Origin: a virus
Virus record (IMG/VR): IMGVR_UViG_3300015263_000944
Location: 43,395-107,394 of that record
Length of the DNA stretch: 64,000 nt
Direction: 5' to 3' (one strand)
The notes below the pieces were generated by a model, which saw nothing but the letters and a program-made list of their open reading frames with translations, made no database searches and was not told where the DNA came from. A program made the translations under genes and the position numbers. This document shows positions 3,542 to 62,589 of the stretch, piece by piece. Within the stretch, counting starts at the first letter, position 1; each line of letters begins with the position of its first letter.

Positions 3542-3601
3542 CATAAGTTCCTCCTCTGCTGGGCTTTTCATTGCCGTCTTCCCGTCAACATCATTATAGA
3601 G

Positions 3602-5872: not shown

Positions 5873-5886
5873 GAACTATCAGAGTA

Positions 5887-6750: not shown

Positions 6751-6760
6751 AACCTTCTTC

Positions 6761-7021: not shown

Positions 7022-7059
7022 GACATTTCCTTCCTTGGAGTTCCCCACACGGTAGCGGA

Positions 7060-9660: not shown

Positions 9661-9855
9661 ATGTTAGTCCTGTCTCGCAAACGTGATGAGAAGATCCTTC
9701 TCAAGACGCACGAAGGTCAAGAAATTGAATTGACAGTGGTACGAATCGACAACAACAAGGTACGTCTAGGCATCGAAGCCTCAGATCAGGTCACGATCCT
9801 CAGATCAGAACTGATCAACAAGGACATCCCAGAAGTTGCTGCCGTTTCGGCCTAA
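9661..9855 (+). CDS. csrA: Carbon storage regulator CsrA homolog
   Basis: MLVLSRKRDEKILL...VRLGIEASDQVTILRSEL aligns with CsrA (MLILTRRVGETLMI...VRIGVNAPKEVSVHREEI). GGAGG lies 6 nt before the ATG. Confidence 0.8.
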   Translation: MLVLSRKRDEKILLKTHEGQEIELTVVRIDNNKVRLGIEASDQVTILRSELINKDIPEVAAVSA

Positions 9856-10970
9856 CTCAACAATTCGCTGATGCTGCCGGTGCCATAATGGATTCTCATT
9901 ATGGCATCGGCAACCATCTGTGCCGTCGAGATTGTCACGACTTTCTTCTTATTCGCCTCACTCAGCCTCCAAGGGTCAACGGTGTCGCACATCACGATTC
10001 TCGTGTTGAGATCATCCATCTTCTGATTGGCGTCTCCGCAGAACAACCCATGTGTGGCGACCACAGCGAACAATTCCCCGCCAGCCGGTTCAACGGCCAT
10101 ACAGGCATTCCGCATGGTGCCACCAGTCGAGATCATGTCGTCCACGGCAATGACGTAGGCACCATCGACATCGCCGATGATGCGACCACCTTCATAGCCA
10201 GTCACGCCACTATTGGCCTCTTTTTTCTTTCGGGTTTTATCGTAGATGACGCATTCGATGGTATTCTTGGCAGGTTTGCCCAGTGCCTTCAGGCAATCGA
10301 CAAGGGCACCCCGGAAACGGCGAGCACGATGAAGACCTCCAGAATCGGGGGTGAGAACTGCAATTTTGTCTGCATCTTGCAGTTGCTTGGCACACCACTC
10401 CGCTTGGAGATTCTTGGCTTCGAGATTGTCAATGGGGCGGGAGAAAGCATTTTGCTCAGCAGCGAGATTGTGTACGTCAATGAACAGGGCTCTGTCCATG
10501 CCCACAGCTTCGAGCATCCGAGCGACGTATTTGGTGGTGATCGGCTCCCTTGAGGCTGTTTTGCGATCCTGTCTGGCCCATGCGAGATGGGGAATGACGA
10601 CCGTAACTTCGTGGGCACTGGCGTCTTTCAGCGATCCCACCATCCAGCACAACTTGACGAACTTGTCCGAAACTGATTCGTGGGCGTCCGAGTACAAACT
10701 TTGGATTACGAAGACATTGTGCCCTCGAACATTGCCAACCGCTCCATCGGCAGATTTGGCGAAGTTCTCGCCATCTGGGAAGTCTAGCTCCTCATGTGGG
10801 GTCAAGTCAATACCCACATGTTCGGCAACTTTCTGAGCGTACCCCTGAGAACTGTTCAGGCCGAAGATCTTGAATGGTCTGGGTGCCCGAGAAATCTTCA
10901 GCAAAGCAGCCGAAACTGCCTGTTGTACCATGGCTTCCGCTTCTTCTACGGTGACGAATCTGCTGGACAT
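9852..10970 (-). CDS. prs: Ribose-phosphate pyrophosphokinase (PRPP synthetase)
   Basis: Prs-type sequence throughout, including the PRPP-binding VDDMISTGGT motif. About 30-aa N-terminal extension. Confidence 0.85.
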   Translation of the reverse strand: MSSRFVTVEEAEAMVQQAVSAALLKISRAPRPFKIFGLNSSQGYAQKVAEHVGIDLTPHEELDFPDGENFAKSADGAVGNVRGHNVFVIQSLYSDAHESVSDKFVKLCWMVGSLKDASAHEVTVVIPHLAWARQDRKTASREPITTKYVARMLEAVGMDRALFIDVHNLAAEQNAFSRPIDNLEAKNLQAEWCAKQLQDADKIAVLTPDSGGLHRARRFRGALVDCLKALGKPAKNTIECVIYDKTRKKKEANSGVTGYEGGRIIGDVDGAYVIAVDDMISTGGTMRNACMAVEPAGGELFAVVATHGLFCGDANQKMDDLNTRIVMCDTVDPWRLSEANKKKVVTISTAQMVADAIMRIHYGTGSISELLS

Positions 10971-11003
10971 TCGAACTCCTTTCGGGATGATCGGGCATCA
11001 GAA

Positions 11004-11882
11004 TTATATGGCATTTTTCGACAACAGTTGAGCTTTTAGCGTGTTTCGCATCAGCATCGCCACCGTCATTGGGCCTACGCCACCGGGAACCGGGGTGATG
11101 GCGGACACCTTCTGTGAGACAGCATCGAAGTCTACATCGCCTACGATCTTTCGAGTGCCGGGAATGCGGTTGATCCCCACGTCAACCACCACGGCACCTT
11201 CCGGCACCATGTCAGCAGTGAGGAAATTGGGCTGGCCGACTGCGACCACGATGATGTCTGAAGAAAGACAGACTTCTTTGAGACGATCTGGGGGCGTGTG
11301 ATCGTGACACATGAAGACCGTGGCATTCGCTTGCCCATGGTCTTGAACGAGAAGTGCAGACAGAGGCTTCCCGACAATATCAGATCGATTGATGATCGCC
11401 ACTTTCTTCCCCGCAATTCCAATGCCGCTACGGGTCAGTAACTCCTGAATACCCTGTGGCGTGCAGGGAACAAATCGAGGACGACCTTGTAGGAGCAGTC
11501 CAACATTCGTAGGCGAAAAGACATCAACGTCTTTGTGAGGGTCGATTCTATCGAAAACCGCTTGTGCGTCAAGACACTTTGGCAACGGCAGTTGAACCAA
11601 GACCCCATGCACAGCCGGATCGTTGTTGAGATAATCGATGGTTGCCAGAAGATGGTCCATTGGCTGGGACCAATTCTCAATGCCTCCTTCGAACGGCTTC
11701 AACAGAAAACTGATGATGCCGCACTCCTCACATGCCTGTCTCTTCTTTGAGACATAAATCTCACTTGCTGGATCTTCAGAGCACAACACCACAGCGAGAC
11801 ATGGTGGCGTCATTCCAATTTTTGCTTTGATCTCTGCACGCACTTCGGCGGCGACAGCGTTCCCGTCAAGAAGTTGGGCCAT
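11004..11882 (-). CDS. folD: Bifunctional methylenetetrahydrofolate dehydrogenase/cyclohydrolase FolD
   Basis: MAQLLDGNAVAAEVRAEIK N-terminus, GKKVAIINRSDIVGKPLSALL and PGGVGPMT motifs. Confidence 0.85.
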   Translation of the reverse strand: MAQLLDGNAVAAEVRAEIKAKIGMTPPCLAVVLCSEDPASEIYVSKKRQACEECGIISFLLKPFEGGIENWSQPMDHLLATIDYLNNDPAVHGVLVQLPLPKCLDAQAVFDRIDPHKDVDVFSPTNVGLLLQGRPRFVPCTPQGIQELLTRSGIGIAGKKVAIINRSDIVGKPLSALLVQDHGQANATVFMCHDHTPPDRLKEVCLSSDIIVVAVGQPNFLTADMVPEGAVVVDVGINRIPGTRKIVGDVDFDAVSQKVSAITPVPGGVGPMTVAMLMRNTLKAQLLSKNAI

Positions 11883-12414
11883 CGATCTCCCTCTCAATCA
11901 GTTCCATCATGGAATCGAAGTGATCGACACAGACGTAATGCAGATCGCCATGCAGGTGTCTGCTAAGATGTCCCTTCAGGAAATTGTCGAAGCTCACAGC
12001 CTCGTCGTAATCCTGATAGCGACCCTTTTCGTTGTACTCGACCGTGCGTTCAATGAAGAGATTGAGAGGTGGAAAGTCTCGGTCGAACTGCTGACAGATG
12101 CGAATCAGATCGTCGGCACATTGAAAATCGTAGAGTGCCGAGTAAGCAGTATTCATCAGCAACGGAGAGTCCGTCACGATGGTTTGCACGTTTCTCAGAA
12201 TGACATCTTCTGACTTCAATTGCTTGGCGAAGACGTACAACTGGTCGTATGAGGTCGGTTTGCGGCCCTCATGTGCCCAAGTTTTTATGTATTCGGGAAT
12301 ATGTTCTACGTCGTATCCCCGAATCTTCAATTCGGCGAACGTGCGAGCGGCCAAGGTGCTCTTCCCGCTACCCGGCCCAGCATAGAAATTCACTCTTCTA
12401 ATTGGTGAGGACAT
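11866..12414 (-). CDS. P-loop NTPase / nucleotide kinase-like protein
   Basis: Walker A GPGSGKST near the N-terminus; 182 aa. Confidence 0.6.
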   Translation of the reverse strand: MSSPIRRVNFYAGPGSGKSTLAARTFAELKIRGYDVEHIPEYIKTWAHEGRKPTSYDQLYVFAKQLKSEDVILRNVQTIVTDSPLLMNTAYSALYDFQCADDLIRICQQFDRDFPPLNLFIERTVEYNEKGRYQDYDEAVSFDNFLKGHLSRHLHGDLHYVCVDHFDSMMELIEREIDGPTS

Positions 12415-13351: not shown

Positions 13352-13618
13352 ATGACCGGCAGCTATTCAGATCAGTTGTTGGAACAGCGTAATAACGAGC
13401 GTCGAGCCACCCGTCCGTGGCTGGAATGCTACATCTGCCAAACACCGCCCACATTTGAGGACGTGAAGGCCCACTTCGCTGAACAGGGGATGCTCGTCAC
13501 ACGGGCGGACTACCAAGCGGTGTGCGAGAAGATGTGCGTGAAGCCACGCTGGGCGCACGAAAAAACCCCGGAGCAACCGAAGTCACTCCGGGGTGAGTCC
13601 GAGGGGACCGACGTTTAG
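13352..13618 (+). CDS. Hypothetical small protein
   Basis: GAGAGGAG RBS 4 nt before the ATG at 13352; 89 aa. Its 3' end contains a hairpin that works as a minus-strand terminator, which lowers confidence. Confidence 0.35.
   Translation: MTGSYSDQLLEQRNNERRATRPWLECYICQTPPTFEDVKAHFAEQGMLVTRADYQAVCEKMCVKPRWAHEKTPEQPKSLRGESEGTDV
13558..13593 (-). terminator. Rho-independent terminator for the ParB-like gene
   Basis: Hairpin CCCCGGAG/CTCCGGGG followed on the minus strand by TTTTTTCG. Confidence 0.5.
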
Positions 13619-15132
13619 TCCTCGTCATCGTACCCCATCCGATCCAACTCAGCGACCGGATTGTAGTCCTCGTCGTCGTCGTCATCGAAGTCGTCCCCGA
13701 ACTCTTCATCGAGTTCGGCGTCGAGTTCGGCGTCGGTTTCGAATTCCTCTTCGTCTTCAACATCAACAGCATCCCATCGGCCCAGATCGATCTGGATCGA
13801 GCGGATGATGTCGAGTCCGGGGCTGTGACGCCCTTCGAGGATCGCCGTGCAGGTTCGCCGCACAGCCATCACCAGATCAGCAGGAATGTTTTCGCCGTAA
13901 TCTGGGTCTTCGGTCTCGCCATCCTCCAGAGCCGCCAGAGAATCGATGATCTCTTGAATCTGCTCCTTCGGCATCATCTTCGCCTTCTTCGGCGACAGAT
14001 TGGCAGCGGCAGCCCCACGAGCGACGTGGCTCTGCTTGATCGTGCCCTTCTCGTCTTCGACACGATCCTTCTTCTCCTTCGCCTTCTTCTGTCGAGTCTG
14101 GGCAGACCGGACAGTGCGACGAGCCTTCTTGGCAGTTGTCTCGTCATCGTTCTGCTCAGCCTTCTTGGCCTCGGCGAGAGCAAGCTCCTCCTCGTCTTCG
14201 GCCTGCTCCAGTTCGTCCTGCGCCTCTTCCAAGCGACGGGCAGTATCTTCCTCTTCGGCCTTCTTCGTCGCCTCGAAAAGTTTCTGACGATCTTCGGGCT
14301 TGAAGCCCATGATGTGGACGGCAACGTGACGGGTCATGGTGCCGTCGAGCAGTTTCTTGTAGGCTTCCTTCGGCAACGCCTCTTGGAAGTTGAGTGTCTG
14401 GGAAACCCACGTCTCATTGGTTCCCAACATGTCGGCGATCTCGCCCTGCTTCATTCCCATCCGCTGGAGACGCTCGACGAGGGCGATCTCTTCTCGGGTT
14501 TCCAACGACTGGCTCTTGTCGTTCTCCGTGAACGCCAAACGCAAGGCACGCTCATCGGTGCAGTCGTAGGCCACCCGGCACGGAATCTGATGGTAGAGCT
14601 TGCTGCCGGGAATGGTGGGAAAGACTTCCTCGGCGGCGACATCACGCTGTTCTTCGCCCAGCGTGAGTCCATCGGCGAGAAAGAACTGGATCGCAAGGCT
14701 GGCCGTCTTGTGAGATACGACCTTGGCGAAGCGACCTTTGTGCAGCACGACGGCCCCGGCACGATACTTCTTCGGGGCTTCAGCGTCTTCGTCGAAACAC
14801 GGGTAATCGTTCTCGACGATCTTCAGGAGGGTTCGCAGCCGCCGCTCACCAGCAATCAACTGGACAGCGACAACCTTCCCCTTCTCAGTCAGGGCACGGA
14901 CTTGCGGGGGTTGCTGCAAGCCGTCCGTCCGAATCGAGAGCAACAACTCTTGCATCTCCGCAGGCGTGAAGCTCTCGATGCTGCGGGGGTTGTAGAAAAG
15001 TTGCTCAGTCTCTCGGCCCTTGGCGGGCCGCTCCACAATCTCAATCTGATCAAGAGGGACGGAAGGATATTTCCCCTCGCCCGTGATCTTGATGGACTTG
15101 GACTTGGTGGTTGTTGTCATTGCGGTTTGCAT
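13615..15132 (-). CDS. ParB-like nuclease domain protein with acidic C-terminal tail
   Basis: ParB N-terminal box LIAGERRLRT. Long charged coiled-coil region. Poly-D/E C-terminus. Confidence 0.8.
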   Translation of the reverse strand: MQTAMTTTTKSKSIKITGEGKYPSVPLDQIEIVERPAKGRETEQLFYNPRSIESFTPAEMQELLLSIRTDGLQQPPQVRALTEKGKVVAVQLIAGERRLRTLLKIVENDYPCFDEDAEAPKKYRAGAVVLHKGRFAKVVSHKTASLAIQFFLADGLTLGEEQRDVAAEEVFPTIPGSKLYHQIPCRVAYDCTDERALRLAFTENDKSQSLETREEIALVERLQRMGMKQGEIADMLGTNETWVSQTLNFQEALPKEAYKKLLDGTMTRHVAVHIMGFKPEDRQKLFEATKKAEEEDTARRLEEAQDELEQAEDEEELALAEAKKAEQNDDETTAKKARRTVRSAQTRQKKAKEKKDRVEDEKGTIKQSHVARGAAAANLSPKKAKMMPKEQIQEIIDSLAALEDGETEDPDYGENIPADLVMAVRRTCTAILEGRHSPGLDIIRSIQIDLGRWDAVDVEDEEEFETDAELDAELDEEFGDDFDDDDDEDYNPVAELDRMGYDDED

Positions 15133-28284: not shown

Positions 28285-28974
28285 ATGCCACACACGTTTT
28301 CTAAGATCATCAAATGGACCATCGGACAACCTCACAATGCTGGCTATTCGTGTTTAAGGCACGCCATGCTGACAATGAGAAGGTTGATCCCCGATGCTCA
28401 TCTCGTCGTCTGTCACAACGGCGAACGTGATCCCATCCCATGGCCCGCCGACGAGATCATCGATCAAAGGACGATCAACTTCAACCTACCCTACGACCCC
28501 AGCGGGCCGGGCTGGAAGCTCTATCCTCCACGATTGAACATCGATGCGTGGGAATTATGGTTGGATAACGATCTGATTCTCTACGAGATGCCGCCAGCCA
28601 TTGAGGAATTCTTCCAGAGCGATAGATTGTTGATTTCAGAAGCGTTCAAGCGTTCTTATTCCGAACGCTTTGATTCGCTGGTGCCACAAGGGGTCAACTA
28701 CAATAGCGGCATCTTGGGCCTGCCTCCCGGCTTCGACTTCGAGGCTCACCTGACGCCACTGATGCAGGATCGAGTCGGCTGGACAGACCATTTCGATGAA
28801 CAGTCGCTCGTGGCCCACATCTTCCACAAGCATGACCCGCTCATTGTCCCCATGAAGGAAGTGCAGGTTCTACAAGAGCGATACATCAAGGGAAGTCACG
28901 GGATTCATTTCGTGGGTTTGAATGGCGGGGATGTGAAGCACTGGAACCGCTACAAAAGCGAGAGGTTGTTTTGA
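28285..28974 (+). CDS. GT32-like glycosyltransferase paralog B
   Basis: IIKWTIGQ, WLDNDLIL, GILGLPPGFDF and GIHFVGLN blocks. Confidence 0.55.
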   Translation: MPHTFSKIIKWTIGQPHNAGYSCLRHAMLTMRRLIPDAHLVVCHNGERDPIPWPADEIIDQRTINFNLPYDPSGPGWKLYPPRLNIDAWELWLDNDLILYEMPPAIEEFFQSDRLLISEAFKRSYSERFDSLVPQGVNYNSGILGLPPGFDFEAHLTPLMQDRVGWTDHFDEQSLVAHIFHKHDPLIVPMKEVQVLQERYIKGSHGIHFVGLNGGDVKHWNRYKSERLF

Positions 28975-29789
28975 TCTCATTCATCATCATCTTCCATCCG
29001 AGCAGGATGAGAAACCTACAACAGACATTGAGGTTTCTCGCAAAGAGAGAACCTGTCCTCCACGAATTGATCCTTGTCTGTCAGACCAGTTGTGAGAATG
29101 TGGAGTCGCCTTTTCTGAAGACTCGCCAGATCAATCTGGGACTAGAGACCTATCACAAATCCCGCATGACCAACATTGGTGTCGAGCAAGCGTCAGGGGA
29201 CATCTTGGCTTTGCTCGACAGCGATAGGATTCTGCCGAAAAGTTACTTCGCAAAAATTGGAATGGACATCCGACCCAACCAGATTGTGACCTCAGAGAAG
29301 CTCTTCTTGCTTCTGGACGATTACACGGATGAGCAAATTGAGAACGAGCAAATCGAAGTGATGGAGGATTTTCGCAGTATCTCCAATGAAGGCCGTCGAA
29401 AGAACCTCTTCGCCGGGAATACCGTGATGCTCAAGGAAGACTACTTGAAGATGGGTGGCTATGATGAATCATACATCGGTTACGGCTATGCCGACAGCGA
29501 CATGACCTTGAAAGCCATGAGCACCGGAGCCGAAATCATCTGGACCCAAGATCCAGAGTTACACCTTCAGCACCATTGCGATGTGTGCTGGAAAGACAAG
29601 ATGGTTCCGCAGAACATCTTCAAGATCATGACGGCCACCAATGGATTTCGATTTCACCGAAAGTGGAAGATGCCGCTTGACGATGCCATCAAAAACCTCA
29701 CCCAAGAAATCGAGGCCGACATCAAATCGTATCCAGAAGAACTGGTGAAAGAGTATTGGCAGATGAAGAAGCCATTCATCCTGCTATAG
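28971..29789 (+). CDS. GT-A fold glycosyltransferase (DxD family paralog 2 of 3)
   Basis: LALLDSDRILP and GGYDESYIGYGYADSDMT blocks. Confidence 0.6.
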   Translation: MISFIIIFHPSRMRNLQQTLRFLAKREPVLHELILVCQTSCENVESPFLKTRQINLGLETYHKSRMTNIGVEQASGDILALLDSDRILPKSYFAKIGMDIRPNQIVTSEKLFLLLDDYTDEQIENEQIEVMEDFRSISNEGRRKNLFAGNTVMLKEDYLKMGGYDESYIGYGYADSDMTLKAMSTGAEIIWTQDPELHLQHHCDVCWKDKMVPQNIFKIMTATNGFRFHRKWKMPLDDAIKNLTQEIEADIKSYPEELVKEYWQMKKPFILL

Positions 29790-30633
29790 CCTGATACCGG
29801 GCCAGCACGTCAGTCGAATCCAAATCAAGACCTTCGCCAAAATAGGTGTGCAGCGGCGCACGTTGATGAGCGAAAGCATAATGACTGACGACCATGCCGC
29901 CGAAGATGGCGTTCTGCTTGCCGATCCGCTGGGGCTTGGTGCGGATCAACCAATCCTCCTCCTTGACGTATTCATCGCCCTCTTTCGCCACTTCGCCGTT
30001 GAACTTGGCGAATTCCGAGCCAAACCAACTGATGCAGTTGATCGACGCCATGTGGCCGATGGCTGGCTCTGGCAGCTTCAGAGACGAGAGATCAGGGTAG
30101 GCGTCGAAAAAGACGTTGTGAAGATGGAGACCGATTTGGCCCCCATGCGGCCTCCACTCCTTCTCTTCGTCATAGCCGCTTTGACAAAAGGGATGAGAAC
30201 GAGGAAAGATGCGAAAGTCCATGCAGTTGTTGACGATGACAGGGAAGACCAAGAAGAACTCTGGGTGCTCTCTGCGAAACTGAATGTAACTCTCGAAGGC
30301 ATCCACCTCGATGAAACACACATCGTCATCGATGCGAACGTAGATGGCATCGTCGTCGATGCAGTTTTGAAAGAATGGGGCGATCATGTGCCCCACATGA
30401 TGCACAGACGGGGTGCCTGTGGTCTCGAAGACACCTTCGACTTCAGACTGATAGATCAATTTGAAGTGCGGACTCAGGGAATGAATATGGTGGATGAACT
30501 CCAAATCGTCCGGGTTCTTCGTGTTGACCCAGAGATGGTGTTCATCCACCACATCCTTCAGTTTGAGAATGTAAGGAAGCTGAACCTCTAAGAACCGCTT
30601 CCGTCCGCAGACAGTGACTAGAATCGTTCTCAT
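29776..30633 (-). CDS. Hypothetical protein (DDD motif, possible glycosyltransferase)
   Basis: Start set at MRTILVTVCG (30633), giving ATGA coupling with the radical-SAM gene stop. VRIDDDVCF block. Confidence 0.45.
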   Translation of the reverse strand: MRTILVTVCGRKRFLEVQLPYILKLKDVVDEHHLWVNTKNPDDLEFIHHIHSLSPHFKLIYQSEVEGVFETTGTPSVHHVGHMIAPFFQNCIDDDAIYVRIDDDVCFIEVDAFESYIQFRREHPEFFLVFPVIVNNCMDFRIFPRSHPFCQSGYDEEKEWRPHGGQIGLHLHNVFFDAYPDLSSLKLPEPAIGHMASINCISWFGSEFAKFNGEVAKEGDEYVKEEDWLIRTKPQRIGKQNAIFGGMVVSHYAFAHQRAPLHTYFGEGLDLDSTDVLARYQAIAG

Positions 30634-32144
30634 TGACGTGGGGCGGCAACCAGTTCGAGTTCGACCTCTTCCTTCTTGGCACGACTTTCTTTGGTGAGCT
30701 TGTAGAGTTGCCGAATCTCTTGCGGCAAGACATACCGAGTTGACATACAACCCATGTCGTGGTTGCCGTCATACCCCTTCTCTGCGAACTGGTTGTTGGC
30801 TTTACAGCCACCCATGCACATCGGCAGAACATGGCACTCGTAGCACTCGGCATCGTTCATGGGATTGAACTCGTACTTGTCCAGTCCCTTCGATCCCTTC
30901 GTGGCGAATTCCAGATTTGTGATATGGCCGATGGCATGACTGTCATCGGTCGAGTGGTGCCAGCATTTGATGATCGCACCACTCGGGTTGACGACGAACT
31001 GAAAGTTCTTGTTAGCTGTGCAGGTGTCCCCGGTGAACCGCAGATTGCGTCGATACGCTTCCGCACTTCGCTCCTGTGACCACCGGTTCAAGCTCAACTC
31101 AAAGCGAGCGTGTTCTTCTTTGGTCATCTGGGAGCTACATGCCCCACCACAGCCATCGAAAATGGCGTTGGTGTAGACTCGCACGATGCCCCCGTCCTCA
31201 GACTTCTCCATCCACCCTCGCTCGTGAGCCAGTTCATACAAGGCTTCGACACGATCCTTGTTGATTTTGCTGACGTTGATCCGCAGGGCGACCTGAAGGC
31301 CAGCATCGTAACAGTGGCCGACGTTGCGAATGATGTCCTCAAAAGACGACTTCGGAGATTCTGGGGCCTGCCCGATGATCGGAAGCGATCCAAAATTTGG
31401 ATCGATCTTTTGTCGCTGAGCAATCTGATGCTCGTGCATGTCCTCGATTTTCATCTGGGAAAGATAGGGCCGCAGGGCGTCGTGGTCTTCTTTGATGCCA
31501 TCGACGGTGATTTGCAAACCCTTGATCTTGCACGCTTTCAGACGGTTGATTACATGCGGCGTGAGGGTGGTGCCATTCGTGATGATGAACGGCTCCCACG
31601 GCACGCCGAGCTTCGAGCACAACATGTCGATGTAAGCCGACAGCCGTTCGATGCAACGCATGTTGAGGGTTGGCTCGCCGCCAAACCAAGTAACGCCGAA
31701 ACTCTTCGTGGGCGTAGCTGTAAGGTACTCGTCGAGAAACCTCTCAACCTGTTCTTGCACCTCTTCTGTCATCATCCGCCATTCGGTTTTCTTCTCATAG
31801 CAGTAGGTGCAGCCGAGGTTGCAACGATCTGTGGTCACGATGGTCAGAGCTTTGGCGATGGGAGAATTGACGTTTTCGTCCCAAAATCTGCCAATCGTCT
31901 CCCGCTCATCGAAACCAGCCGGTTTGAGGAATCCGCCGTTCTTCAGGGTCTCCACAAAAGTTGGAGTCGCCAACGAAAAATCGCCGTCCGACAGACGGCG
32001 ATACACCTCTGCCTTTTCGTCACTCAGAAGAAGGAGCGTGCCCTTCATCTGACTATGTAGCAACCAACCATCGTCACACTCAACCAAGGTGTTGTAGCGT
32101 GAGACTTCGTGTGTAGGTCGGCTGCGCCAGAACCAATTGAACAT
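30630..32144 (-). CDS. Radical SAM / SPASM domain enzyme with roughly 100-aa N-terminal extension (possible RRE)
   Basis: CNLGCTYC (CxxxCxxC) at about residue 108, GGEPTLN motif, and a C-terminal Cys-rich SPASM region CYECHVLPMCMGGC. GGAGGAG RBS. Confidence 0.85.
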   Translation of the reverse strand: MFNWFWRSRPTHEVSRYNTLVECDDGWLLHSQMKGTLLLLSDEKAEVYRRLSDGDFSLATPTFVETLKNGGFLKPAGFDERETIGRFWDENVNSPIAKALTIVTTDRCNLGCTYCYEKKTEWRMMTEEVQEQVERFLDEYLTATPTKSFGVTWFGGEPTLNMRCIERLSAYIDMLCSKLGVPWEPFIITNGTTLTPHVINRLKACKIKGLQITVDGIKEDHDALRPYLSQMKIEDMHEHQIAQRQKIDPNFGSLPIIGQAPESPKSSFEDIIRNVGHCYDAGLQVALRINVSKINKDRVEALYELAHERGWMEKSEDGGIVRVYTNAIFDGCGGACSSQMTKEEHARFELSLNRWSQERSAEAYRRNLRFTGDTCTANKNFQFVVNPSGAIIKCWHHSTDDSHAIGHITNLEFATKGSKGLDKYEFNPMNDAECYECHVLPMCMGGCKANNQFAEKGYDGNHDMGCMSTRYVLPQEIRQLYKLTKESRAKKEEVELELVAAPRQ

Positions 32145-32176
32145 ACTTCTCCTCCAGTGAGATCAGCGGCAGCGAT

Positions 32177-32374
32177 TTAGGTCAAGCCAGTACAGGGGGC
32201 CTGAAACGTGCAGTCAGCGAGCTTGAGACCCTTGAGATCTTTGGGGTCTCCCTGTTCCGCTGGCTCATGGACGATTTCGACGCCTTCGTCCTTCTTGGCA
32301 TCTTTGTCTTTGTCGGTGTTGCTCTCAGTGGTAGACTTAGAGAACAACGATGTGAGTCGTTCGAAGAAACTCAT
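32177..32374 (-). CDS. Candidate RiPP precursor peptide (65 aa; C-terminal ADCTFQAPCTGLT)
   Basis: AAGGAGGT RBS 6 nt before the ATG. Charged leader-like N-terminal part. Two Cys in the last 13 residues. It lies 33 nt upstream of the radical SAM/SPASM gene on the same strand. Confidence 0.5.
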   Translation of the reverse strand: MSFFERLTSLFSKSTTESNTDKDKDAKKDEGVEIVHEPAEQGDPKDLKGLKLADCTFQAPCTGLT

Positions 32375-32420
32375 CGAGTACCTCCTTGGTGGATGATGTT
32401 GTCAGAATTCGACGCTCGTT

Positions 32421-32448
32421 ATTCTAGCAAACAACCCGTATTTCGCAA
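32421..32448 (-). promoter_or_regulatory. Putative sigma70-like promoter for the peptide and radical-SAM operon
   Basis: On the minus strand: TTGCGA, 16-nt spacer, TAGAAT. It sits about 45 nt upstream of the peptide ATG. Confidence 0.4.
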
Positions 32449-32457
32449 GGTTGAATC

Positions 32458-33030
32458 GTGAACAATTACCTGAAACCATATCCGCTCTTTGTGATCGAAA
32501 ACTTCGCCAACGTCGCTGACTTACAAATTCCGAGCCTCAACAGGGTGAGCCGGGACGGCAACCTGAAGTATGAAGAGCGGCAAAATAGCTGGCCCGAGAT
32601 CGATGACCTGATCACCCACTTCTTACAACATGCCGTGCTTCCCTACATCCGTCCTCTGGAAAACGAGTTCCATTTCAAGCTCCCCGAAGACAGATCATAC
32701 GGCTGCGTGATCATGCAGGCAAGAGAGGGTTACGAATTACGGCCCCACACCGACAGCCGAAACCGCCTCGTCTCGGGGGTTTTGTACTTGGAGTCCGACG
32801 TGAAGGGCGGCGAACTGGTCTTCTGTGACCACCCAAACCTTCCCAATCTTCCCCATCTTATGGAACAGGATGTGCCGGATCTTGTGAGAATCGAGCCCAA
32901 ACCGGGAACCTTCGTCTGCTGGCTCAACTCTTTCAACTCCTATCACTACACAACCCCCATGAAAGGCACACGCAATTCTCTCTACATAAGTTGGGAATCA
33001 AAAACGCCGATCTGGGGTGAGAGTGCTTAA
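32458..33030 (+). CDS. 2OG-Fe(II) oxygenase (prolyl 4-hydroxylase-like)
   Basis: HTD ... GGELVF ... H pattern with LRPHTDSRNRLVSGVLYL. GTG start. Confidence 0.7.
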   Translation: MNNYLKPYPLFVIENFANVADLQIPSLNRVSRDGNLKYEERQNSWPEIDDLITHFLQHAVLPYIRPLENEFHFKLPEDRSYGCVIMQAREGYELRPHTDSRNRLVSGVLYLESDVKGGELVFCDHPNLPNLPHLMEQDVPDLVRIEPKPGTFVCWLNSFNSYHYTTPMKGTRNSLYISWESKTPIWGESA

Positions 33031-34387
33031 GTTTTCGAACACACAATCAAAATTTGGACACTGGTTCAACAGCTTCAAGGGCTGGCAAAAGCATCGACGG
33101 CAACTTGTCTTTGTAGAGCCAGACCAACTTAATCAATATCGAGAAGAAGGTCTGGCCCATATCCAGAAATACTATCGTCGGTCGATGCCATTGCCATCGA
33201 GCGTCTTGCCGACACCGCTCTACAGCTATCACAGCAAAGAACTTCGAACATCTGGCTCTCAATCGTCCATTCGGCGACGATACTTGTACTCAAGCCCTCA
33301 ATACGAGTGCATTGAAAATCACCATTGGTGGAGAATCGAGTCGGCTCATGGACTCGAAGAGCCCGGCATTGTATTCGATCTGGGATATTCGCCAACCTAC
33401 TTGCAGCACGAAGAATACCGAGAGAGCTACATCAGTGACTACGATGGCGTTCACGACCCCACAGGCCGACACAACACACATAAGCTAATTTGGTATCGGC
33501 GAAACACCGGCTCTTCGGCACTCGTTGAAACTCTGCAAGAAGCCCGAGATCAAAACCCAAAAATTGTAATGTGCTCGCCCAGCCAAATCGAATTCCTGTA
33601 TGCTCGCTCCGAGGGTAAAGTCCAATTCGATTGCCCGCTCATCTCGACTCGTGAGACACTCTATCCTCATGTCAGAAAAATGGCATTGAAAATGTTTCCC
33701 AAGGTCATAGACAAGATGAGATGTTGGGACGGAGGACTGACCTTCTATGAATGTGCCGAAGGTCGGTTACATGTTTGTGATGAACTTTGTCACGTTGAAC
33801 AACTTGATGATGGACTGCTGGCTTGCACAGATTACTTCAACTTCTCAACGCCATTTCTCAGATATCTAAACGGCGATGCGGGATCGTTGGCTTGTGGACA
33901 TTGTTCATGTGGGGTTTATGGAAACTATCTCACCAAATTCGATGGCGCATCACGATCCCTGATTTGGATCGGAGACTATGCTATCCCCGGATCGCTAGTC
34001 GTAGAAGACATCAATAGTTTGTTCGAGTTCGGCGGCTGTGCCTCGAACGTGTTCTCCCTTTCGATGATCGAGAAGTATCACGGGAACCCATTTGAGGGCT
34101 ATGACATTCTGTATCGAGTTATTCAACACAAAGATGAATCAATCGAATTTCTCTACCATTCCAAACCATCACTGGGAGATACGCAGTTAGCTGCTCTGCG
34201 AGACGGCTTGAACTTCATATTCTATCGACAGGTCAGCGAGGGTCTCACTATTCATCAACACGAATCTGCATTTATGGTTGCGCCCAAACCTCTTGCCATC
34301 TCAGCCGATCCAGATCTGATGTCACACACTCGGGGAGCCAGACACAAGAGCCGATGTGTGGAGTCTCACATAAGCAAAGGTGTGTAA
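33017..34387 (+). CDS. Hypothetical large protein (possible adenylate-forming-like)
   Basis: 456-aa ORF with several Cys clusters. No firm family assignment. Confidence 0.45.
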   Translation: MRVLKFSNTQSKFGHWFNSFKGWQKHRRQLVFVEPDQLNQYREEGLAHIQKYYRRSMPLPSSVLPTPLYSYHSKELRTSGSQSSIRRRYLYSSPQYECIENHHWWRIESAHGLEEPGIVFDLGYSPTYLQHEEYRESYISDYDGVHDPTGRHNTHKLIWYRRNTGSSALVETLQEARDQNPKIVMCSPSQIEFLYARSEGKVQFDCPLISTRETLYPHVRKMALKMFPKVIDKMRCWDGGLTFYECAEGRLHVCDELCHVEQLDDGLLACTDYFNFSTPFLRYLNGDAGSLACGHCSCGVYGNYLTKFDGASRSLIWIGDYAIPGSLVVEDINSLFEFGGCASNVFSLSMIEKYHGNPFEGYDILYRVIQHKDESIEFLYHSKPSLGDTQLAALRDGLNFIFYRQVSEGLTIHQHESAFMVAPKPLAISADPDLMSHTRGARHKSRCVESHISKGV

Positions 34388-34950
34388 CTCGCTTTATTGC
34401 GATGTGGAAATTCAACATCAGGAATGTCTTTACCCAAGAAACCACATAACTTTTCCCAACCATCGCCGTCGCAGATGTTCATCACCAACAGATCATCTGG
34501 GCGATCCTTGAAGTATTCCATCACCGATTTAGTGTGCTTCTCGTAAATGTGTGCAAACCGCTCACGTTGAAAATAGAAGGTGCCAAATGTAACAGCGGTG
34601 ATGAATAAAGCAAACTTGGATCTCGTCTCCATGCCATCCCGCCAATCTCTGTGGTTTCCTAACCAGTGGTAATTCACAGATCGCAACCAAGAATTCACAT
34701 CACGTTCTGTGAGGATGAACTTGCTGCCGGGGAAAGCCTCGTCCAACTCGACGTAGAACGGAGCGACACTAAGATCGCAAGCCCCATCACATTGCTTGAC
34801 CACATCCAACTCATAGTCGCCATGAATCAATTGTTCATATGTTCGATCATCGTGCGGATAATGAACGATGTGAACTCCCAGATGGTGCAGAGCCACATAT
34901 AAGCTGGTTGTGCCAGTCCTCTGAAGACCTATGCCGAAAACTTTGTTCAT
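34366..34950 (-). CDS. Sulfotransferase family protein
   Basis: MNKVFGIGLQRTGTTSL (5'-PSB) and FILTERDVNSWLRS (3'-PB-like) motifs. Start taken at M31. Confidence 0.65.
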   Translation of the reverse strand: MNKVFGIGLQRTGTTSLYVALHHLGVHIVHYPHDDRTYEQLIHGDYELDVVKQCDGACDLSVAPFYVELDEAFPGSKFILTERDVNSWLRSVNYHWLGNHRDWRDGMETRSKFALFITAVTFGTFYFQRERFAHIYEKHTKSVMEYFKDRPDDLLVMNICDGDGWEKLCGFLGKDIPDVEFPHRNKASYTPLLM

Positions 34951-35489
34951 TTCAAATATCCAAACGATGCTGAGATTCTGGGAATGAGTCCTACCACTTC
35001 TTGGCACTCGTGATAGTGTTTGTTGGCGAGGAAATACCACGCATCTCCAGCATTCAGATCCAGCACATCATCTTCTATCACTGGCAGACCTCCTGAATCC
35101 GGCTTGGAGATCAAAAGGTTGAATCTCATATGGTCGTAGTTATCATAGCCATAGTTGTCATCAATGTGACGTGGCACGCTGCAACCTTCGCAAACAAACT
35201 CGATGTTCGCCACACAATACGGATGATACATCTTCTGAGATTTTGTCAGTTGGAGTCCAAAATCTCTCAATTCATAGAACGGTTCGGGGATTCTGTCAGA
35301 AACGAAACACGTCTCTTTTTTGTCAAAATCTGGCCGCTTGTCGAACACCGACAATCTTAAAGTACCACCTTTGGTTCCATTCCCCTGCCAAATTCCCGGA
35401 ATTGCCAATTCCTTGTGATCCAAACACCACTTGTGTATTTGGCTCAATTTCGTATAATTCAGGACATTGCGACATACTGTGTAGCTCAT
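34947..35489 (-). CDS. Hypothetical protein, possible cupin-fold oxygenase
   Basis: PRHIDD ... KHYHE pattern (HxD ... H). Confidence 0.4.
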   Translation of the reverse strand: MSYTVCRNVLNYTKLSQIHKWCLDHKELAIPGIWQGNGTKGGTLRLSVFDKRPDFDKKETCFVSDRIPEPFYELRDFGLQLTKSQKMYHPYCVANIEFVCEGCSVPRHIDDNYGYDNYDHMRFNLLISKPDSGGLPVIEDDVLDLNAGDAWYFLANKHYHECQEVVGLIPRISASFGYLK

Positions 35490-36288: not shown

Positions 36289-36848
36289 TTGTATGCCACG
36301 AACCCAAATTTGCTTTCATCCGTAATCCGAAAACGGCGTCCCGATCCGTAACAAAAATCCTCCAAGACAATTTCACGGTTTGGGATTGTTCCGATTACCA
36401 CGGCTGGATCTTGCCCGAGGCGTGTCAGGATTACTTCACATTCATGTTTGTGAGGAATCCATTCAGTCGCACTGTCTCGGCATGGTTGCACGTCTGCGAA
36501 GATCGCATCAGAGTGGGAAGAGCCTCCTCCCCATCGCTGGCTCAGTTTGTTGATTACGGCGGATTTGGGCTCCACAACGCAAGGAACTATTTCAAGCAAT
36601 CGGATTTGCTGAAATGGATCGAAGCCGATACCAAAAGTAAGGTGACAATCTTAAAGTACGAGAATTTGGCAGAAGAGATTCGGAATCTCCCATTCATGCC
36701 AGAAGGAATCGAGTTGCCGCACATTGGCAACTCTGGAAAAGACTGGATGTCTTTTTACACGCCCGAGATCGAGGAAAGAGTTCGCCAAGCTCTGGCAGAG
36801 GATTTTGAAACCTTCGGATATCACGACAGGATTTCAATTTCCATGTGA
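36285..36848 (+). CDS. Carbohydrate sulfotransferase-like (Sulfotransfer_2 type)
   Basis: FAFIRNPKTASRS (5'-PSB) and FMFVRNPFSRTVSAW (3'-PB RDPxxRxxSA-like) motifs. Confidence 0.65.
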   Translation: MIVCHEPKFAFIRNPKTASRSVTKILQDNFTVWDCSDYHGWILPEACQDYFTFMFVRNPFSRTVSAWLHVCEDRIRVGRASSPSLAQFVDYGGFGLHNARNYFKQSDLLKWIEADTKSKVTILKYENLAEEIRNLPFMPEGIELPHIGNSGKDWMSFYTPEIEERVRQALAEDFETFGYHDRISISM

Positions 36849-36892
36849 ACCAAATCGTCGATCCGAGGCTCTGTTATCTCAAGGAGGAGATT

Positions 36893-37822
36893 ATGTCGAG
36901 CACAACGCAACAACTCATGGAAAAAGGGCTCATCAAGGATGCCCCGCCTTTCCTCAAAACCAACGTCCATTACGAGACGATCATGGGCTCACACGCCTAT
37001 GGTGTCGCCGATACGAGTGTGCGTGACAAGATCCCGGACTATGACGTGTACGGGTTCGCTATTCCTCCCAAGGAATACATCTTCAAGCACCTGACAGGAT
37101 GGATTCCGGGTTTTGGCCCCGAGCCTCCGGGCTTCGAGCAGTGGCAGCGTCATCACATCATGGATCAGGACGCCATTGCTGGGAAGGGCAAGGAATGGGA
37201 CTTGAGCATCTTCAGCATCGTGAAGTTCTTCGAATTGTGTCGGGACAACAACCCCAACATGATCGACAGCCTCTTCACGCCCGAGAACTGTGTGATTCAC
37301 TGCACGATGATCGGGCGGATGGTGCGTGACAACCGCAAACTCTTCTTGTCCAAGAGGGCATGGAAGAAGTTTCGTGGATATGCTCACAGCCAGTTGAAGA
37401 AGATGAACGACAAGAACCCCATCGGAAAGCGTAAGGAGATCATCGAGAAGCACGGCTTCGACGTGAAGTTTGCTTACCACATCATCCGTCTCTTGGACGA
37501 AGTGGAGCAAGTCATGTTGGAAGGCGACATCGACCTCCAGCGTGCCCGAGAACCGATGAAGGCCATCCGTCGAGGCGACTGGACGGCAGATGAGGTTCGC
37601 AACTGGGCGATGGAAAAAGAGCGAGTTCTGGAAGCGGTTTACTCTGAATGTAAGCTTCCTACAGAGCCTCCCGTCGAGCCTCTGCGGCAACTTCTGATGA
37701 ACTGTCTGGAGGAGCACTACGGATCGCTTCAGGACTGCGTGGCCCAAACCGGATGGGCGGAAAATTCGCTCATGCAGATTGACGAAATCCTCAACAGAAT
37801 TCGTGCCAGTCTGTACAAGTAA
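36893..37822 (+). CDS. Pol-beta superfamily nucleotidyltransferase domain protein
   Basis: AAGGAGGAG RBS before the ATG at 36893. GS...(13)...DYD pattern (MGSHAYGVADTSVRDKIPDYDV). Confidence 0.5.
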   Translation: MSSTTQQLMEKGLIKDAPPFLKTNVHYETIMGSHAYGVADTSVRDKIPDYDVYGFAIPPKEYIFKHLTGWIPGFGPEPPGFEQWQRHHIMDQDAIAGKGKEWDLSIFSIVKFFELCRDNNPNMIDSLFTPENCVIHCTMIGRMVRDNRKLFLSKRAWKKFRGYAHSQLKKMNDKNPIGKRKEIIEKHGFDVKFAYHIIRLLDEVEQVMLEGDIDLQRAREPMKAIRRGDWTADEVRNWAMEKERVLEAVYSECKLPTEPPVEPLRQLLMNCLEEHYGSLQDCVAQTGWAENSLMQIDEILNRIRASLYK

Positions 37823-43102: not shown

Positions 43103-43723
43103 TCAATCATCGTCCCCGATGCCGACATTCCAATATGCCTCGCCCAAGAACGCTTCCCAGCTTTTCACTGGCTTCAGCGACTCAAACTTGAACAGGCTCA
43201 TCCGAGGCTTCTTCGGCTGCGAGAGCAGCTTCATACCGGCCTGCTTGGGCGTGCGGTCAGCCTTGCGACTGTTGCATTCCACACAAGCAAGGACACAGTT
43301 CTCCCAAGACGTTGCCCCACCCTGTGACCGAGGGATAACGTGCTCAATGGTCAATTCCGCAGAGCCGGGTCGGCAACCGCAGTATTGACACGTCATGTTG
43401 TCTCGCTTGTACAGAGTGCGTCGGCTGAAGTGGAGCTTCGGCTGAGGCATCTTGTCGTAACGAGTCAACAGGATGACTTCTGGGATTCTGAAAGCAACAT
43501 GCGCCGCTCGAAGAGCCTCATCAGTACACAGAGGCTTCAACTTGCTCCAGTCCTCCCATGTGAAGGTCTGGTAGCTTTCGTGATCGATGATGCGGGCTTT
43601 GGGCTCTCCATTCTTGTAGGTACTGAAGAGCATGATGATCGCTCGCTGAAGCGGCACAGTGCCGACTGGCGACCATCCTTTGTTGAGAACTAAGCATTTG
43701 CGTGAGTTGAGAGTGGTACTCAT
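43103..43723 (-). CDS. HNH endonuclease
   Basis: CQYCGC ... EHVIPRSQGG ... CVLACVECNSRK. GGAAGGAG RBS. Confidence 0.75.
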   Translation of the reverse strand: MSTTLNSRKCLVLNKGWSPVGTVPLQRAIIMLFSTYKNGEPKARIIDHESYQTFTWEDWSKLKPLCTDEALRAAHVAFRIPEVILLTRYDKMPQPKLHFSRRTLYKRDNMTCQYCGCRPGSAELTIEHVIPRSQGGATSWENCVLACVECNSRKADRTPKQAGMKLLSQPKKPRMSLFKFESLKPVKSWEAFLGEAYWNVGIGDDD

Positions 43724-45301: not shown

Positions 45302-46396
45302 TTACTTCAGAGTTCCCTCTGATTTCTGGGGCACGGTCGGGGCTTCTCGCCAAACCGAACGAGTCGGGAACTTCAGTTCCGTTGCTCGGTCGCCGAGGTA
45401 GTATGGTCCCTTACCGGTGATGATGATGTGAGGCGAGGTTGGCCCTTCGCCTGCATCAGCCGCACTTCGAGAGTAGCTGAAAGTCACACCGTTGTCCTCG
45501 ACGGGCAACTTTTCAAGCTCTTCTTCAGTTGGCATCTTGACGTTGGCGTCCAACGCCCATTCAATACTGGCCTGCTTCGACCATTCTTGCATCCGGCGAA
45601 CCGGAACAATCAAATTGAAAGTCTCACCAGCACCACGCACAAGCATACCCACCATGCGTCCGTCTGTGAGGTAGACGCCGCCACCAGACGAACCGGGGAA
45701 TGCAGCAACAGTTGTCTGATCAAACACCTTCTTGTCGATCAAACGTCCGTGCTGTGACATGATACCTGTGGTCATCGAGTTGGAACCAAGCTGGCCCAAC
45801 AGAGATCCGACGTGCAACAGATTCGTTCCGAGACTCGGAATTTCTTTGTCTAAGTAGAAGGTAACTGTCGCATCAACGAAGTTCTTCTTGCGTAGACGAA
45901 GAAGAGCCAAGTCTTCCTCTGCACTGTATCGCACGACCTGAGCATAGAACTCGACCTTGCCGACCGAACGTCCATCTTCTGTGAGAGACTTCACGACCAT
46001 TGCATCGTCGAATTCGACGACAGTACGCTTTGTGCCGCTCTTCGGATCAATGACATCCTTGGTCTTTCGCAGGTTGTCCACCACATGGGCAGCCGTCCAG
46101 ACGAAGTTGACCTTTTCGCCGTTGGGGAAAGTGCGTGTCACGATAACGCCACTGCCTTCACCACCGCCGCCGTATTGGCCCTTGCTGACGATGGTAACAC
46201 TGATGTCTTGAAGGTGCTGGGCCATATTCTTCGCTTCTGTGTGATTCACAGCGTCGTCTTTGGAATTGGCATCCAGCTTCTTCTGCAATTCTGCGATCTG
46301 AGCCTTCAGATCATCAGCGTTGTCCTGTGCAAACGATGCAACAGGTGCGGCCATCATCAAGGCGACGGCCAACATTGTTGAAATAACTTTTCGCAT
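45302..46396 (-). CDS. Secreted trypsin-like (S1) serine protease
   Basis: Signal peptide MRKVISTMLAVALMMAAPVASFAQ. Catalytic His (TAAHVV), Asp (DLALLRL) and Ser (GSSGGG) blocks. AGGAGG RBS. Confidence 0.75.
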   Translation of the reverse strand: MRKVISTMLAVALMMAAPVASFAQDNADDLKAQIAELQKKLDANSKDDAVNHTEAKNMAQHLQDISVTIVSKGQYGGGGEGSGVIVTRTFPNGEKVNFVWTAAHVVDNLRKTKDVIDPKSGTKRTVVEFDDAMVVKSLTEDGRSVGKVEFYAQVVRYSAEEDLALLRLRKKNFVDATVTFYLDKEIPSLGTNLLHVGSLLGQLGSNSMTTGIMSQHGRLIDKKVFDQTTVAAFPGSSGGGVYLTDGRMVGMLVRGAGETFNLIVPVRRMQEWSKQASIEWALDANVKMPTEEELEKLPVEDNGVTFSYSRSAADAGEGPTSPHIIITGKGPYYLGDRATELKFPTRSVWREAPTVPQKSEGTLK

Positions 46397-53592: not shown

Positions 53593-53663
53593 GTACCCCC
53601 TAGAGGAGTCGAACCTCTTCTAAAACTTTAGGAAAGTCTTGTGCTTCCGTCACACTCAGGGGG
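53593..53663 (-). tRNA. tRNA-Arg (anticodon CCU)
   Basis: Manual cloverleaf fold. Acceptor GCCCCCT/AGGGGGT. D arm GTGT-GACGGAA-GCAC. Anticodon stem AGACT/AGTTT with loop TTCCTAA. T arm AGAGG-TTCGACT-CCTCT. Discriminator A. 71 nt without CCA. Confidence 0.65.
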
Positions 53664-53712
53664 CTCGGAATGTTGCATTGTAACATATCTAGCCGAAACA
53701 CTAAATATCTCT

Positions 53713-62079: not shown

Positions 62080-62589
62080 TCACAACATCGCAGCCCGTTT
62101 GTCCTTGTCAGACAGGAAATACTGTTCGGACGGAGGCCAGCGAATCCCTAACTTCGGATCACGCCAATTGATTTCCTTCTCAACTGAAGGCTCATATGTA
62201 CCATCTTGCAGATAAAGAAGCAAGGTGTCGTTTTCCGACGCAAAGAAACCATGAGCACATCCCGCAGGAACATACACCTGATTTCTATCACTTCCATCGA
62301 GCCAGACGCCTGCCCACTTAAGGTAGGTGGGGGAGTTGGGCCTTACGTCGGCGACGACATCAAAGAGTCGTCCCTTAAGACACATCGCAAGTTTCGCAAA
62401 GGGAGCGAGGTGCATTCCACGAACAACGCCTTTGCGTGAATTGGATAGATTAAGTTGGCGTTTCTGGCCCACCAGATGCGGGAAGCTTCTGGCTGTCGAA
62501 TAGAGTTCCTCGAAATAGCCTCGCTCATCTTCGTGGCGGTCAACGGTGACGAGGAACGCACCGTCAACATCAAGTGGTCGCTTTTCCAT
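62080..62589 (-). CDS. rmlC: dTDP-4-dehydrorhamnose 3,5-epimerase-like (RmlC cupin) sugar epimerase
   Basis: DERGYFEE, KGVVRGMH, FDVVADVR and VPAGCAHGF blocks typical of RmlC. Confidence 0.75.
   Translation of the reverse strand: MEKRPLDVDGAFLVTVDRHEDERGYFEELYSTARSFPHLVGQKRQLNLSNSRKGVVRGMHLAPFAKLAMCLKGRLFDVVADVRPNSPTYLKWAGVWLDGSDRNQVYVPAGCAHGFFASENDTLLLYLQDGTYEPSVEKEINWRDPKLGIRWPPSEQYFLSDKDKRAAML

Follow-up and report, generated by a model that had tools for sequence, protein, structure and literature searches.

The DNA considered here is a 64-kb stretch of the IMG/VR virus record IMGVR_UViG_3300015263_000944 (its positions 43,395 to 107,394), referred to below in its whole length as the window. 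Its minus strand carries a gene for a 65-aa peptide, followed after a gap of 32 nt (32145..32176) by a gene for a 504-aa radical S-adenosylmethionine (SAM) enzyme with a SPASM domain (Table 1). An earlier interpretation of the same DNA, made without database searches (the sequence-only reading), had taken the pair for a candidate cassette producing a ribosomally made peptide with post-translational modification (RiPP) and had counted the gap as 33 nt, one too many. The small open reading frame (ORF) and its strong ribosome-binding site (RBS), AAGGAGGT located 5 nt before the ATG, were confirmed, and the same 65-aa ORF was called as a gene on an identical Logan contig. The peptide ends in ...KLADCTFQAPCTGLT, with CTGLT as the last residues. 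Its core reads K-L-A-D-C-T-F-Q-A-P-C, and there are two Cys in the precursor. Upstream of the gene, the proposed promoter TTGCGA-16-TAGAAT is present in the 83-bp divergent intergenic region common to the peptide gene and a 2-oxoglutarate (2OG) oxygenase gene, but it gained no statistical support. Promoter-type sites are no more numerous than in shuffled sequence (1 in 3.2 kb versus a mean of 2.0), so the site carries no evidential weight and was rejected as evidence.

The small ORF is conserved together with the enzyme. We compared 13 independent related loci with enzyme identities of 35-73%, and in 12 of them the enzyme gene is immediately preceded by a related small ORF, which co-varies with it and remains adjacent over this whole range of divergence. 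Searching a database of 5.8 billion proteins with a profile built from eight copies resulted in 18 peptide homologues of 50-88 aa (E down to 1e-22), at least 10 of which are on contigs equal in length to enzyme-bearing contigs. Pairwise codon comparison of the leader/core junction in six loci gave pS values (synonymous differences) of 0.56-1.0 (saturated) against pN values (nonsynonymous differences) of 0.20-0.34, and on these sequence comparisons the small ORF is under purifying selection.

Within the peptide, conservation is concentrated at the junction between leader and core. G49, K51, D54 and C61 are invariant in an alignment of eight family members (alignment A2), with the pattern G-x-K-L-[AV]-D-x(n)-C, and C55 is variable, being replaced by Ala or Ser in these members and by Val in one of the further peptides (L171). 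The N-terminal part varies and can be basic or acidic. After it come a strand-like motif, G-[IV]-[EK]-[IV]-[IV]-x-x-P, then DPxELKG-x-K-L-[AV]-D and a short loop, and close to the end C-[PTS]-x-L-x. Three divergent members (L172, L173 and L175) have long Cys-rich cores with Asp (or Asn/Glu) in most of the segments between Cys. This repetition suggests, at the level of sequence, that the Asp...Cys unit is what gets modified. The peptide matched no family in Pfam and NCBIfam, SCIFF included, and no further precursor copy was found within the window.

The enzyme has the architecture of a peptide maturase. Pfam detects the radical SAM core only (Radical_SAM, 67.5 bits). The CNLGCTYC and GGEPTLN motifs and the SPASM Cys cluster noted by the sequence-only reading are all there and are invariant in an alignment of 48 homologue sequences. 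They comprise the cluster ligands C108, C112 and C115 (CX3CX2C) and the SPASM Cys in canonical spacing (C375-x13-G-x4-C394, C434-x2-C437-x5-C443-x3-C447, C466), and the SPASM domain model TIGR04085 is matched above its cutoff (50.1 bits vs. 27). An AlphaFold2 (AF2) model built on the same alignment has a predicted local distance difference test score (pLDDT) of 90.5. In Foldseek comparisons of this model CteB and TigE rank first; the anaerobic sulfatase-maturating enzyme (anSME) was also matched, and SuiB and EpeE are further structural neighbors. Based on these fold matches we take the N-terminal residues, about 95 of them preceding the radical SAM core where about 100 had been estimated, as a RiPP recognition element (RRE), and in the model this domain is PqqD-like. 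A search by sequence did not recover this assignment: Pfam PqqD was not detected in the enzyme, and a profile of the N-terminal domain gave only a nonsignificant match to TigE (E 0.43) among PDB sequences. The enzyme combines an RRE, a radical SAM core and a SPASM domain, and the adjacent, co-conserved peptide contains Cys and is organized into leader and core. The radical SAM barrel also has an insertion of ~40 aa (residues ~226-265, PYLSQMKIEDMHEHQIAQRQKIDPNFGSLPIIGQ...), which is conserved among the subfamilies whose peptides have one or two Cys; a distant subgroup, to which the Cys-rich-peptide members P0047 and P0050 belong, lacks it or has a much shorter version.

The top NCBIfam matches of the enzyme are all peptide maturases of Cys-rich precursors. 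The nearest hidden Markov models (HMMs) are TIGR04463 (rSAM_vs_C_rich, 215.7 bits), CefB (Cys-every-fifth, 180), FlmE/OhkG (164), Clo7bot (163) and geopeptide (131), matched with the N-terminal domain included. All of these families carry an annotation as Cys-rich peptide maturases, and the precursors of L172, L173 and L175 are likewise Cys-rich, but the scores lie under curated cutoffs of 400-600 bits, and most members of the family described here have a minimal core of one or two Cys. We found no literature on TIGR04463 or on the function of OhkG, FlmE and CefB, the latter three names returning only unrelated acronyms. Among functionally named models, PapB scored 98.2 bits, the SCIFF maturase 79.4, QhpD 74 and anSME 68.2, and the annotation of the closest of these (PapB, SCIFF maturase and QhpD) is that of a Cys-thioether or related maturase.

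We propose, with a probability of roughly 0.7, that the locus is a RiPP-type cassette in which an RRE-dependent radical SAM/SPASM maturase converts a precursor peptide into a ranthipeptide-like Cys thioether product that is subsequently tailored. The sequence-only reading had named two observations that would speak against a RiPP cassette, namely clear homology of the enzyme to anSME or another non-peptide enzyme lacking an RRE, and a small ORF that is not conserved in related genomes. We found RiPP-maturase HMMs at the top of the matches and a small ORF that is maintained upstream of the enzyme with a strongly conserved junction, and the RiPP interpretation is supported. In the proposed mechanism the 65-aa product would be the precursor, and its leader (G-[IV]-[EK]-[IV]-[IV]-x-x-P ... 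DPxELKG-x-K-L) would dock on the RRE of the enzyme. The radical SAM cluster would cleave SAM to the 5'-deoxyadenosyl radical, which would abstract a hydrogen from the short core, while the two SPASM auxiliary clusters would handle the Cys thiolate and the electron. We infer that the peptide is the substrate of the enzyme and that the chemistry is thioether formation with Asp as acceptor. The likeliest product would be an intramolecular thioether of the ranthipeptide kind that joins Cys61 to a carbon in a side chain. Our first choice of acceptor is the invariant Asp54 with its beta-carbon, which would give a small D...C macrocycle. Because the nearest functionally named families are Cys-thioether or related maturases and PapB joins Cys to Asp/Glu, we propose this specific Cys61-Asp54 link tentatively, at somewhat less than even odds.

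The genes around the pair (Table 1) confirm the setting in a glycan island that the sequence-only reading had described. That reading had missed two further members of the cassette, a PaaK-family ligase and a coupled glycosyltransferase-like gene. The ligase is the most constant neighbor: tblastn detected a homologue within ~4 kb of the maturase in all 13 loci, and this homologue immediately follows the enzyme gene in L006 and L173. Its AF2 model (pLDDT 89) matches 6SIX (E 6e-13), 6WUQ, 4R1M and 2Y27 in Foldseek, all with probability 1.00, the named matches being the PaaK-family AMP ligases AjiA1, NatL2 and PaaK1/2, and on this model the 456-aa protein has the two-domain PaaK fold. By sequence it had no match in Pfam, no meaningful match in the PDB and only a weak one to TIGR02304 ("F390 synthetase-related," 30 bits vs. 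a cutoff of 252), and it contains a conserved P-loop-like TSGSQSS motif and a CxCG motif. Its start is uncertain because the gene caller on another contig chose a 400-aa version.

The 285-aa gene begins within the radical SAM stop codon (ATGA), which places it in the same operon. Along its whole length the product matches phrog_4447 ("glycosyltransferase," E 3e-15), and it contains an invariant DDD motif; the protein family comprises 867 clusters, some members of which are fused to GT2, GT4 or GT90 glycosyltransferase domains. No Pfam match and no PDB sequence match was found for this protein. A gene of this type occurs at the corresponding position in L001, L002 and L005, overlapping the stop codon in the window, L001 and L005. 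In L174 the enzyme stop is instead overlapped by a nonhomologous GT2/GT7C gene, a homologue of the window ORF 28971..29789. Sulfotransferases, further methyltransferases and further glycosyltransferases surround the cassette. Three unrelated loci have an RlaP-family nucleotidyltransferase gene (PF10127) only a few kb away from the cassette: the window (36845..37822, +), L006 (3124-4029) and L175 (7798-8697). L175 contains, in addition, a SAM synthetase gene (metK) and two further radical SAM genes at most 7 kb from the maturase (5633-6814, 10272-12254), an arrangement that suggests provision of SAM by the phage for the radical reactions.

Table 1. Features of the peptide-maturase cassette and its surroundings (positions in the window).
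Feature	Position	Strand	Basis
Predicted radical SAM/SPASM peptide maturase, 504 aa	30630..32144	-	Pfam, NCBIfam, AF2 model, fold matches
RBS GGAGGAG of radical SAM gene, inside the gap after the peptide stop	32149..32155	-	Read from sequence
RRE-like (PqqD-like winged-helix) N-terminal domain, ~residues 10-95	31860..32117	-	Fold
Radical SAM core, ~residues 96-330, CNLGCTYC (C108/C112/C115) and GGEPTLN (155-161)	31155..31859	-	Pfam and 48-sequence alignment
SPASM domain, ~residues 365-470, seven invariant Cys	30735..31052	-	48-sequence alignment; TIGR04085 over residues 375-466
Precursor-peptide gene, 65 aa, ATG start, MSFFERLTSLFSKSTTESNTDKDKDAKKDEGVEIVHEPAEQGDPKDLKGLKLADCTFQAPCTGLT	32177..32374	-	ORF reading, homologues, purifying selection
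RBS AAGGAGGT of peptide gene, 5 nt before ATG	32380..32387	-	Read from sequence
Leader/core junction and core, residues 43-65, DPKDLKGLKLADCTFQAPCTGLT	32180..32248	-	Alignment A2 and further peptides
Candidate sigma-70-like promoter TTGCGA-16-TAGAAT, TG before -10	32421..32448	-	9/12 positions matched; not statistically supported
Predicted PaaK-family adenylate-forming ligase, 456 aa	33017..34387	+	AF2 model, Foldseek, tblastn
Glycosyltransferase-like gene, 285 aa	29776..30633	-	phrog_4447, DDD motif, domain fusions in relatives
2OG-Fe(II) oxygenase, PF13640, prolyl-hydroxylase-like, 190 aa, divergent from peptide gene	32458..33030	+	Family match; recurs in related loci
GT2/GT7C-type glycosyltransferase, 272 aa	28971..29789	+	Homologue in 7/13 loci
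Class I SAM methyltransferase, 254 aa	35524..36288	+	Recurs near maturase in related loci
Second 2OG-oxygenase-like gene, weak match, 180 aa	34947..35489	-	Recurs in related loci
Sulfotransferase (Sulfotransfer_4), glycan/tailoring island	34366..35040	-	Family match

With these neighbors the proposed pathway can be extended, the steps of ligase and glycosyltransferase being suggested by gene linkage. The PaaK-fold ligase may adenylate a carboxylate (of Asp, of the C-terminus or of an external acid); the coupled glycosyltransferase-like protein may glycosylate the modified peptide, and the 2OG oxygenase and the methyltransferase may tailor it further. Since the cassette contains no dedicated leader protease or exporter, its product may act within the infected cell or leave it at lysis. 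In its fullest form this scheme would be a phage-restricted RiPP pathway in which the cyclized peptide is adenylated by the PaaK-type ligase, glycosylated and possibly sulfated or methylated, giving a peptide-glycan conjugate or a peptide-anchored glycan during infection. Such a product might serve host-surface remodeling, superinfection exclusion or virion decoration, or act as an intracellular effector; we regard this extended version as doubtful.

Several points weigh against the proposed thioether cassette. We know of no biochemical data for the family or its nearest HMM families. The enzyme scores far below each family-specific curated cutoff (for example, 215.7 vs. 525 for TIGR04463). 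The spacing from D to C ranges from 3 to 7 residues across the peptides, the Lys is not strictly retained in the Cys-rich variants, and the paralogous locus L007 has no recognizable precursor peptide. No leader peptidase, ABC exporter/transporter or immunity gene was found in any of the loci. The surrounding island could itself explain the linkage with glycosyltransferase and ligase genes, independent of the peptide. Finally, PapB substrates contain six Cys-X3-Asp repeats with Asp/Glu C-terminal to Cys (PMC12373016), whereas the peptides described here mostly have one D...C pair, and the conserved Asp is N-terminal to the Cys.

Among the alternatives, the one that survives best retains a peptide maturase and assigns it a different chemistry, namely a sactionine linkage at the alpha-carbon, a thioether between Cys and the C-terminal residue, oxidation of Cys to formylglycine, epimerization or a C-C cross-link. 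We consider it unlikely. It would fit an enzyme that stays below the cutoffs of all characterized families and whose structural neighbors span several chemistries (the thioether enzyme CteB, TigE, oxidation by anSME, C-C cross-linking by SuiB and epimerization by EpeE). PapB is also able to couple Cys to a C-terminal residue (PMC12373016), and in many members only four residues separate Cys61 from the C-terminus. The tail after this Cys, however, varies from 4 to ~31 residues across the family, which argues against a thioether to the C-terminal residue. Moreover, invariance across the aligned peptides is limited to G, K, D and C, and the Cys-rich variants repeat Asp together with Cys.

A second alternative is that the peptide is a sacrificial scaffold for a cofactor or small molecule similar to mycofactocin or PQQ, which would be trimmed and then glycosylated, methylated or sulfated by the enzymes of the island. 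Mycofactocin is such a peptide-derived cofactor: its pathway (MftA/B/C and the glycosyltransferase MftF) uses a peptide scaffold, an RRE and a radical SAM/SPASM enzyme, followed by GT2-type glycosylation and methylation. The constant company of glycosyltransferase, methyltransferase, oxygenase and sulfotransferase genes, together with the lack of an exporter or immunity gene at the examined loci, is in line with this idea. The mycofactocin maturase model (TIGR03962), on the other hand, was outside the best 25 of the 74 matches listed for the window enzyme, no significant MftC-specific match being among those listed, and it reached 38.6 bits for a cellular relative. The peptide has no C-terminal Val-Tyr, MftD- or MftE-like genes were not seen, and the conserved neighborhood is without a peptidase. 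With no specific HMM match and a precursor that ends in CTGLT and not in Gly-Val-Tyr, the mycofactocin-like version was judged unlikely, and we consider a peptide-derived cofactor in general to be very improbable.

Least probable of all, to the point of being hardly credible, is a glycan- or small-molecule-modifying radical SAM enzyme or anSME-type protein maturase of the island for which the small ORF would not be the substrate: the enzyme gene does lie among glycosyl-, sulfo- and methyltransferase genes, is translationally coupled to the glycosyltransferase-like gene and in L006 has a homologue near a sulfatase gene, but the small ORF stays adjacent to the enzyme and co-varies with it, and the anSME version was rejected because the enzyme has an RRE, which anSME lacks, scores only 68.2 bits with the anSME HMM (TIGR03942, cutoff 349), and is accompanied by a peptide without the C/S-x-P/A-x-R sulfatase motif.

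The ranthipeptide-like cassette that we favor resembles several known systems in part. The closest functionally named one is PapB/PapA (freyrasin), which shares a radical SAM/SPASM maturase and a core with Cys and Asp; PapB (NF047865) is the best-scoring functionally named family for the enzyme, but with 98.2 bits it stays below the cutoff of 340. PapB joins Cys to the carbon adjoining the carboxylate of Asp/Glu with loose spacing (PMC9413430, PMC12373016), and Cys-Asp/Glu thioethers at spacings of 0-6 residues are tolerated (PMC9413430). The CteB/SCIFF (thermocellin) maturase (PDB 5WGG/5WHY), one of the two top-ranking structural matches, is 15-17% identical to the enzyme, which scores 79.4 bits with TIGR03974 (cutoff 425), and the precursor found here is not of the SCIFF type (six Cys in forty-five residues). 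To our knowledge, the pap cluster has neither linkage to a PaaK ligase and a glycosyltransferase nor a phage-like context. In streptococci, the acceptor Asn of the NxxcB product is N-terminal to the donor Cys in an N-x-x-C motif, forming a beta-thioether. This logic is analogous to the D-x(n)-C arrangement described here. NxxcB belongs to the known radical SAM RiPP families (PMC11851443), but no specific HMM match to it was seen for the enzyme, and leader, organismal context and accessory genes differ.

Phage carriage of a RiPP locus has a precedent of another kind. Sublancin, a glycocin from prophage SPbeta, is encoded by a phage-carried locus whose glycosyltransferase acts on a Cys-containing peptide; this locus has no radical SAM enzyme and includes an exporter and an immunity gene. 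The cassette described here, in contrast, has a radical SAM enzyme and no exporter, and it is situated among auxiliary genes on phage-like contigs of 150-600 kb. That phages carry interbacterial weapons encoded by biosynthetic gene clusters is a theme cited in PMC7616364.

Homologues of the enzyme with at least 33% identity were found on phage-like contigs of about 150-609 kb, and the identical protein is present on a 238,888-bp contig from the Joint Genome Institute (JGI). IMG/VR yielded three relatives when scanned with the family alignment and none when scanned with the single enzyme protein. A metagenome-contig scan with a family-specific SPASM sub-alignment returned 4 loci only, including one that was known before. 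GenBank phages yielded no close relative, the best of 19 tblastn matches being 28% identical. In a scan of 185,579 prokaryotic species, represented by one genome each, the best cellular relatives among the matches listed were 26-27% identical. One member is filed under a Neisseriaceae metagenome-assembled genome (MAG), but it is located on a phage-like 15-kb contig. Judged by sequence, and among the matches listed, the family so far appears only on large phage-like metagenomic contigs, in each case with an adenylating ligase and sugar-transfer genes next to it.

The window itself, which covers 64 kb of the 238,888-bp contig, did not reveal virion hallmark genes (capsid, terminase, portal) among the ~30 ORFs scanned, and for this reason we regard the viral origin of the contig, as read from its genes, as probable and not as demonstrated. 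Neighbors of the type found in large phages are present in the window and related loci, including HNH endonucleases, an Acb2/Tad1-type sponge, a tRNA synthetase, ClpX/ClpP, PIF1 and UvrD-type helicases, ParB, PRPP synthetase, MetK and a tRNA. The Acb2/Tad1-hairpin anti-defense sponge (L172:10203-10505) is 2 kb from the maturase on a 296-kb contig, which supports the phage nature of that contig. The best GenBank phage match of a ClpX-like ATPase in the window, at 2249..3571 (-), is from LR756511, a 595-kb uncultured huge phage (54% identity), and in L171 and L174 the cassette has ClpP genes nearby. Further genes of the window encode a PRPP synthetase, FolD and a 505-aa ParB-like protein (9852..10970, 11004..11897 and 13615..15132, all -), an HNH endonuclease and a trypsin-like protease with a PDGLE-like N-terminus (43103..43723 and 45302..46396, both -), and a dTDP-4-dehydrorhamnose 3,5-epimerase and a UvrD-type helicase (62080..62589 and 62602..63993, both -), an auxiliary set typical of large phages. 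The GTG start annotated for a 1152-aa ORF (53641..57099, +) is overlapped by a tRNA-Arg(CCT) gene at 53593..53664 (-), and the true start of the ORF is probably downstream; this ORF contains a Laminin_G_3/ConA-like lectin domain and had no PHROG or phage tblastn match.

Two other groups of loci deserve mention. L007 and L009 are two paralogous pairs of maturase and PaaK-like genes ~24 kb apart on the 381-kb viral contig IMGVR_UViG_3300032334_002567. L009 has a typical single-Cys peptide, and upstream in L007 there is a 204-aa ORF holding ...FRVCGVVLVDTGTTGG... (L007 coordinates 5357-5971 and 6001-7464). Small ORFs (L089:5811-5990, L090:5658-5834, L092:5743-5967) also lie upstream of the nearest cellular relatives of the enzyme among the matches listed (24-26% identity), which come from Mesorhizobium, Acidobacteriaceae and an actinomycete MAG. 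These small ORFs have a common two-Cys ending, ...[AT][RT]LCG-x3-4-C-[LV]A[LIV][IV]E..., the enzymes are below all NCBIfam cutoffs, and together they may represent a second uncharacterized RiPP family.

The architecture of the enzyme is that of the known RRE-dependent radical SAM/SPASM maturase type. What we could not find described are the restriction, so far, to large phage-like contigs, the core of one or two Cys, the obligatory linkage to a PaaK-fold ligase, the coupling to a glycosyltransferase gene and the lack of export and protease genes. Our literature searches likewise returned no description of radical SAM RiPPs in phage genomes or of jumbo or huge phages in combination with RiPPs. 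If the chemistry is confirmed, the cassette would represent a RiPP family apparently confined to large phage-like genomes, with an unusually small recognizable core, a single Asp...Cys pair, and an accessory set so far undescribed for radical SAM RiPPs, namely a PaaK-fold ligase at every examined locus and coupled glycosyltransferases. Should the product be an ordinary ranthipeptide with bystander neighbors, it would still define a new and well-delimited family, whereas a phage RiPP/glycan conjugate would be a hybrid product class without described precedent. The cassette would further offer a compact set of leader, RRE and enzyme for peptide macrocyclization and a handle on the products of the "glycan islands" of large phages. 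Huge phages would then be seen to devote effort during infection to the chemistry of peptide natural products, and not to nucleotide and glycan metabolism only.

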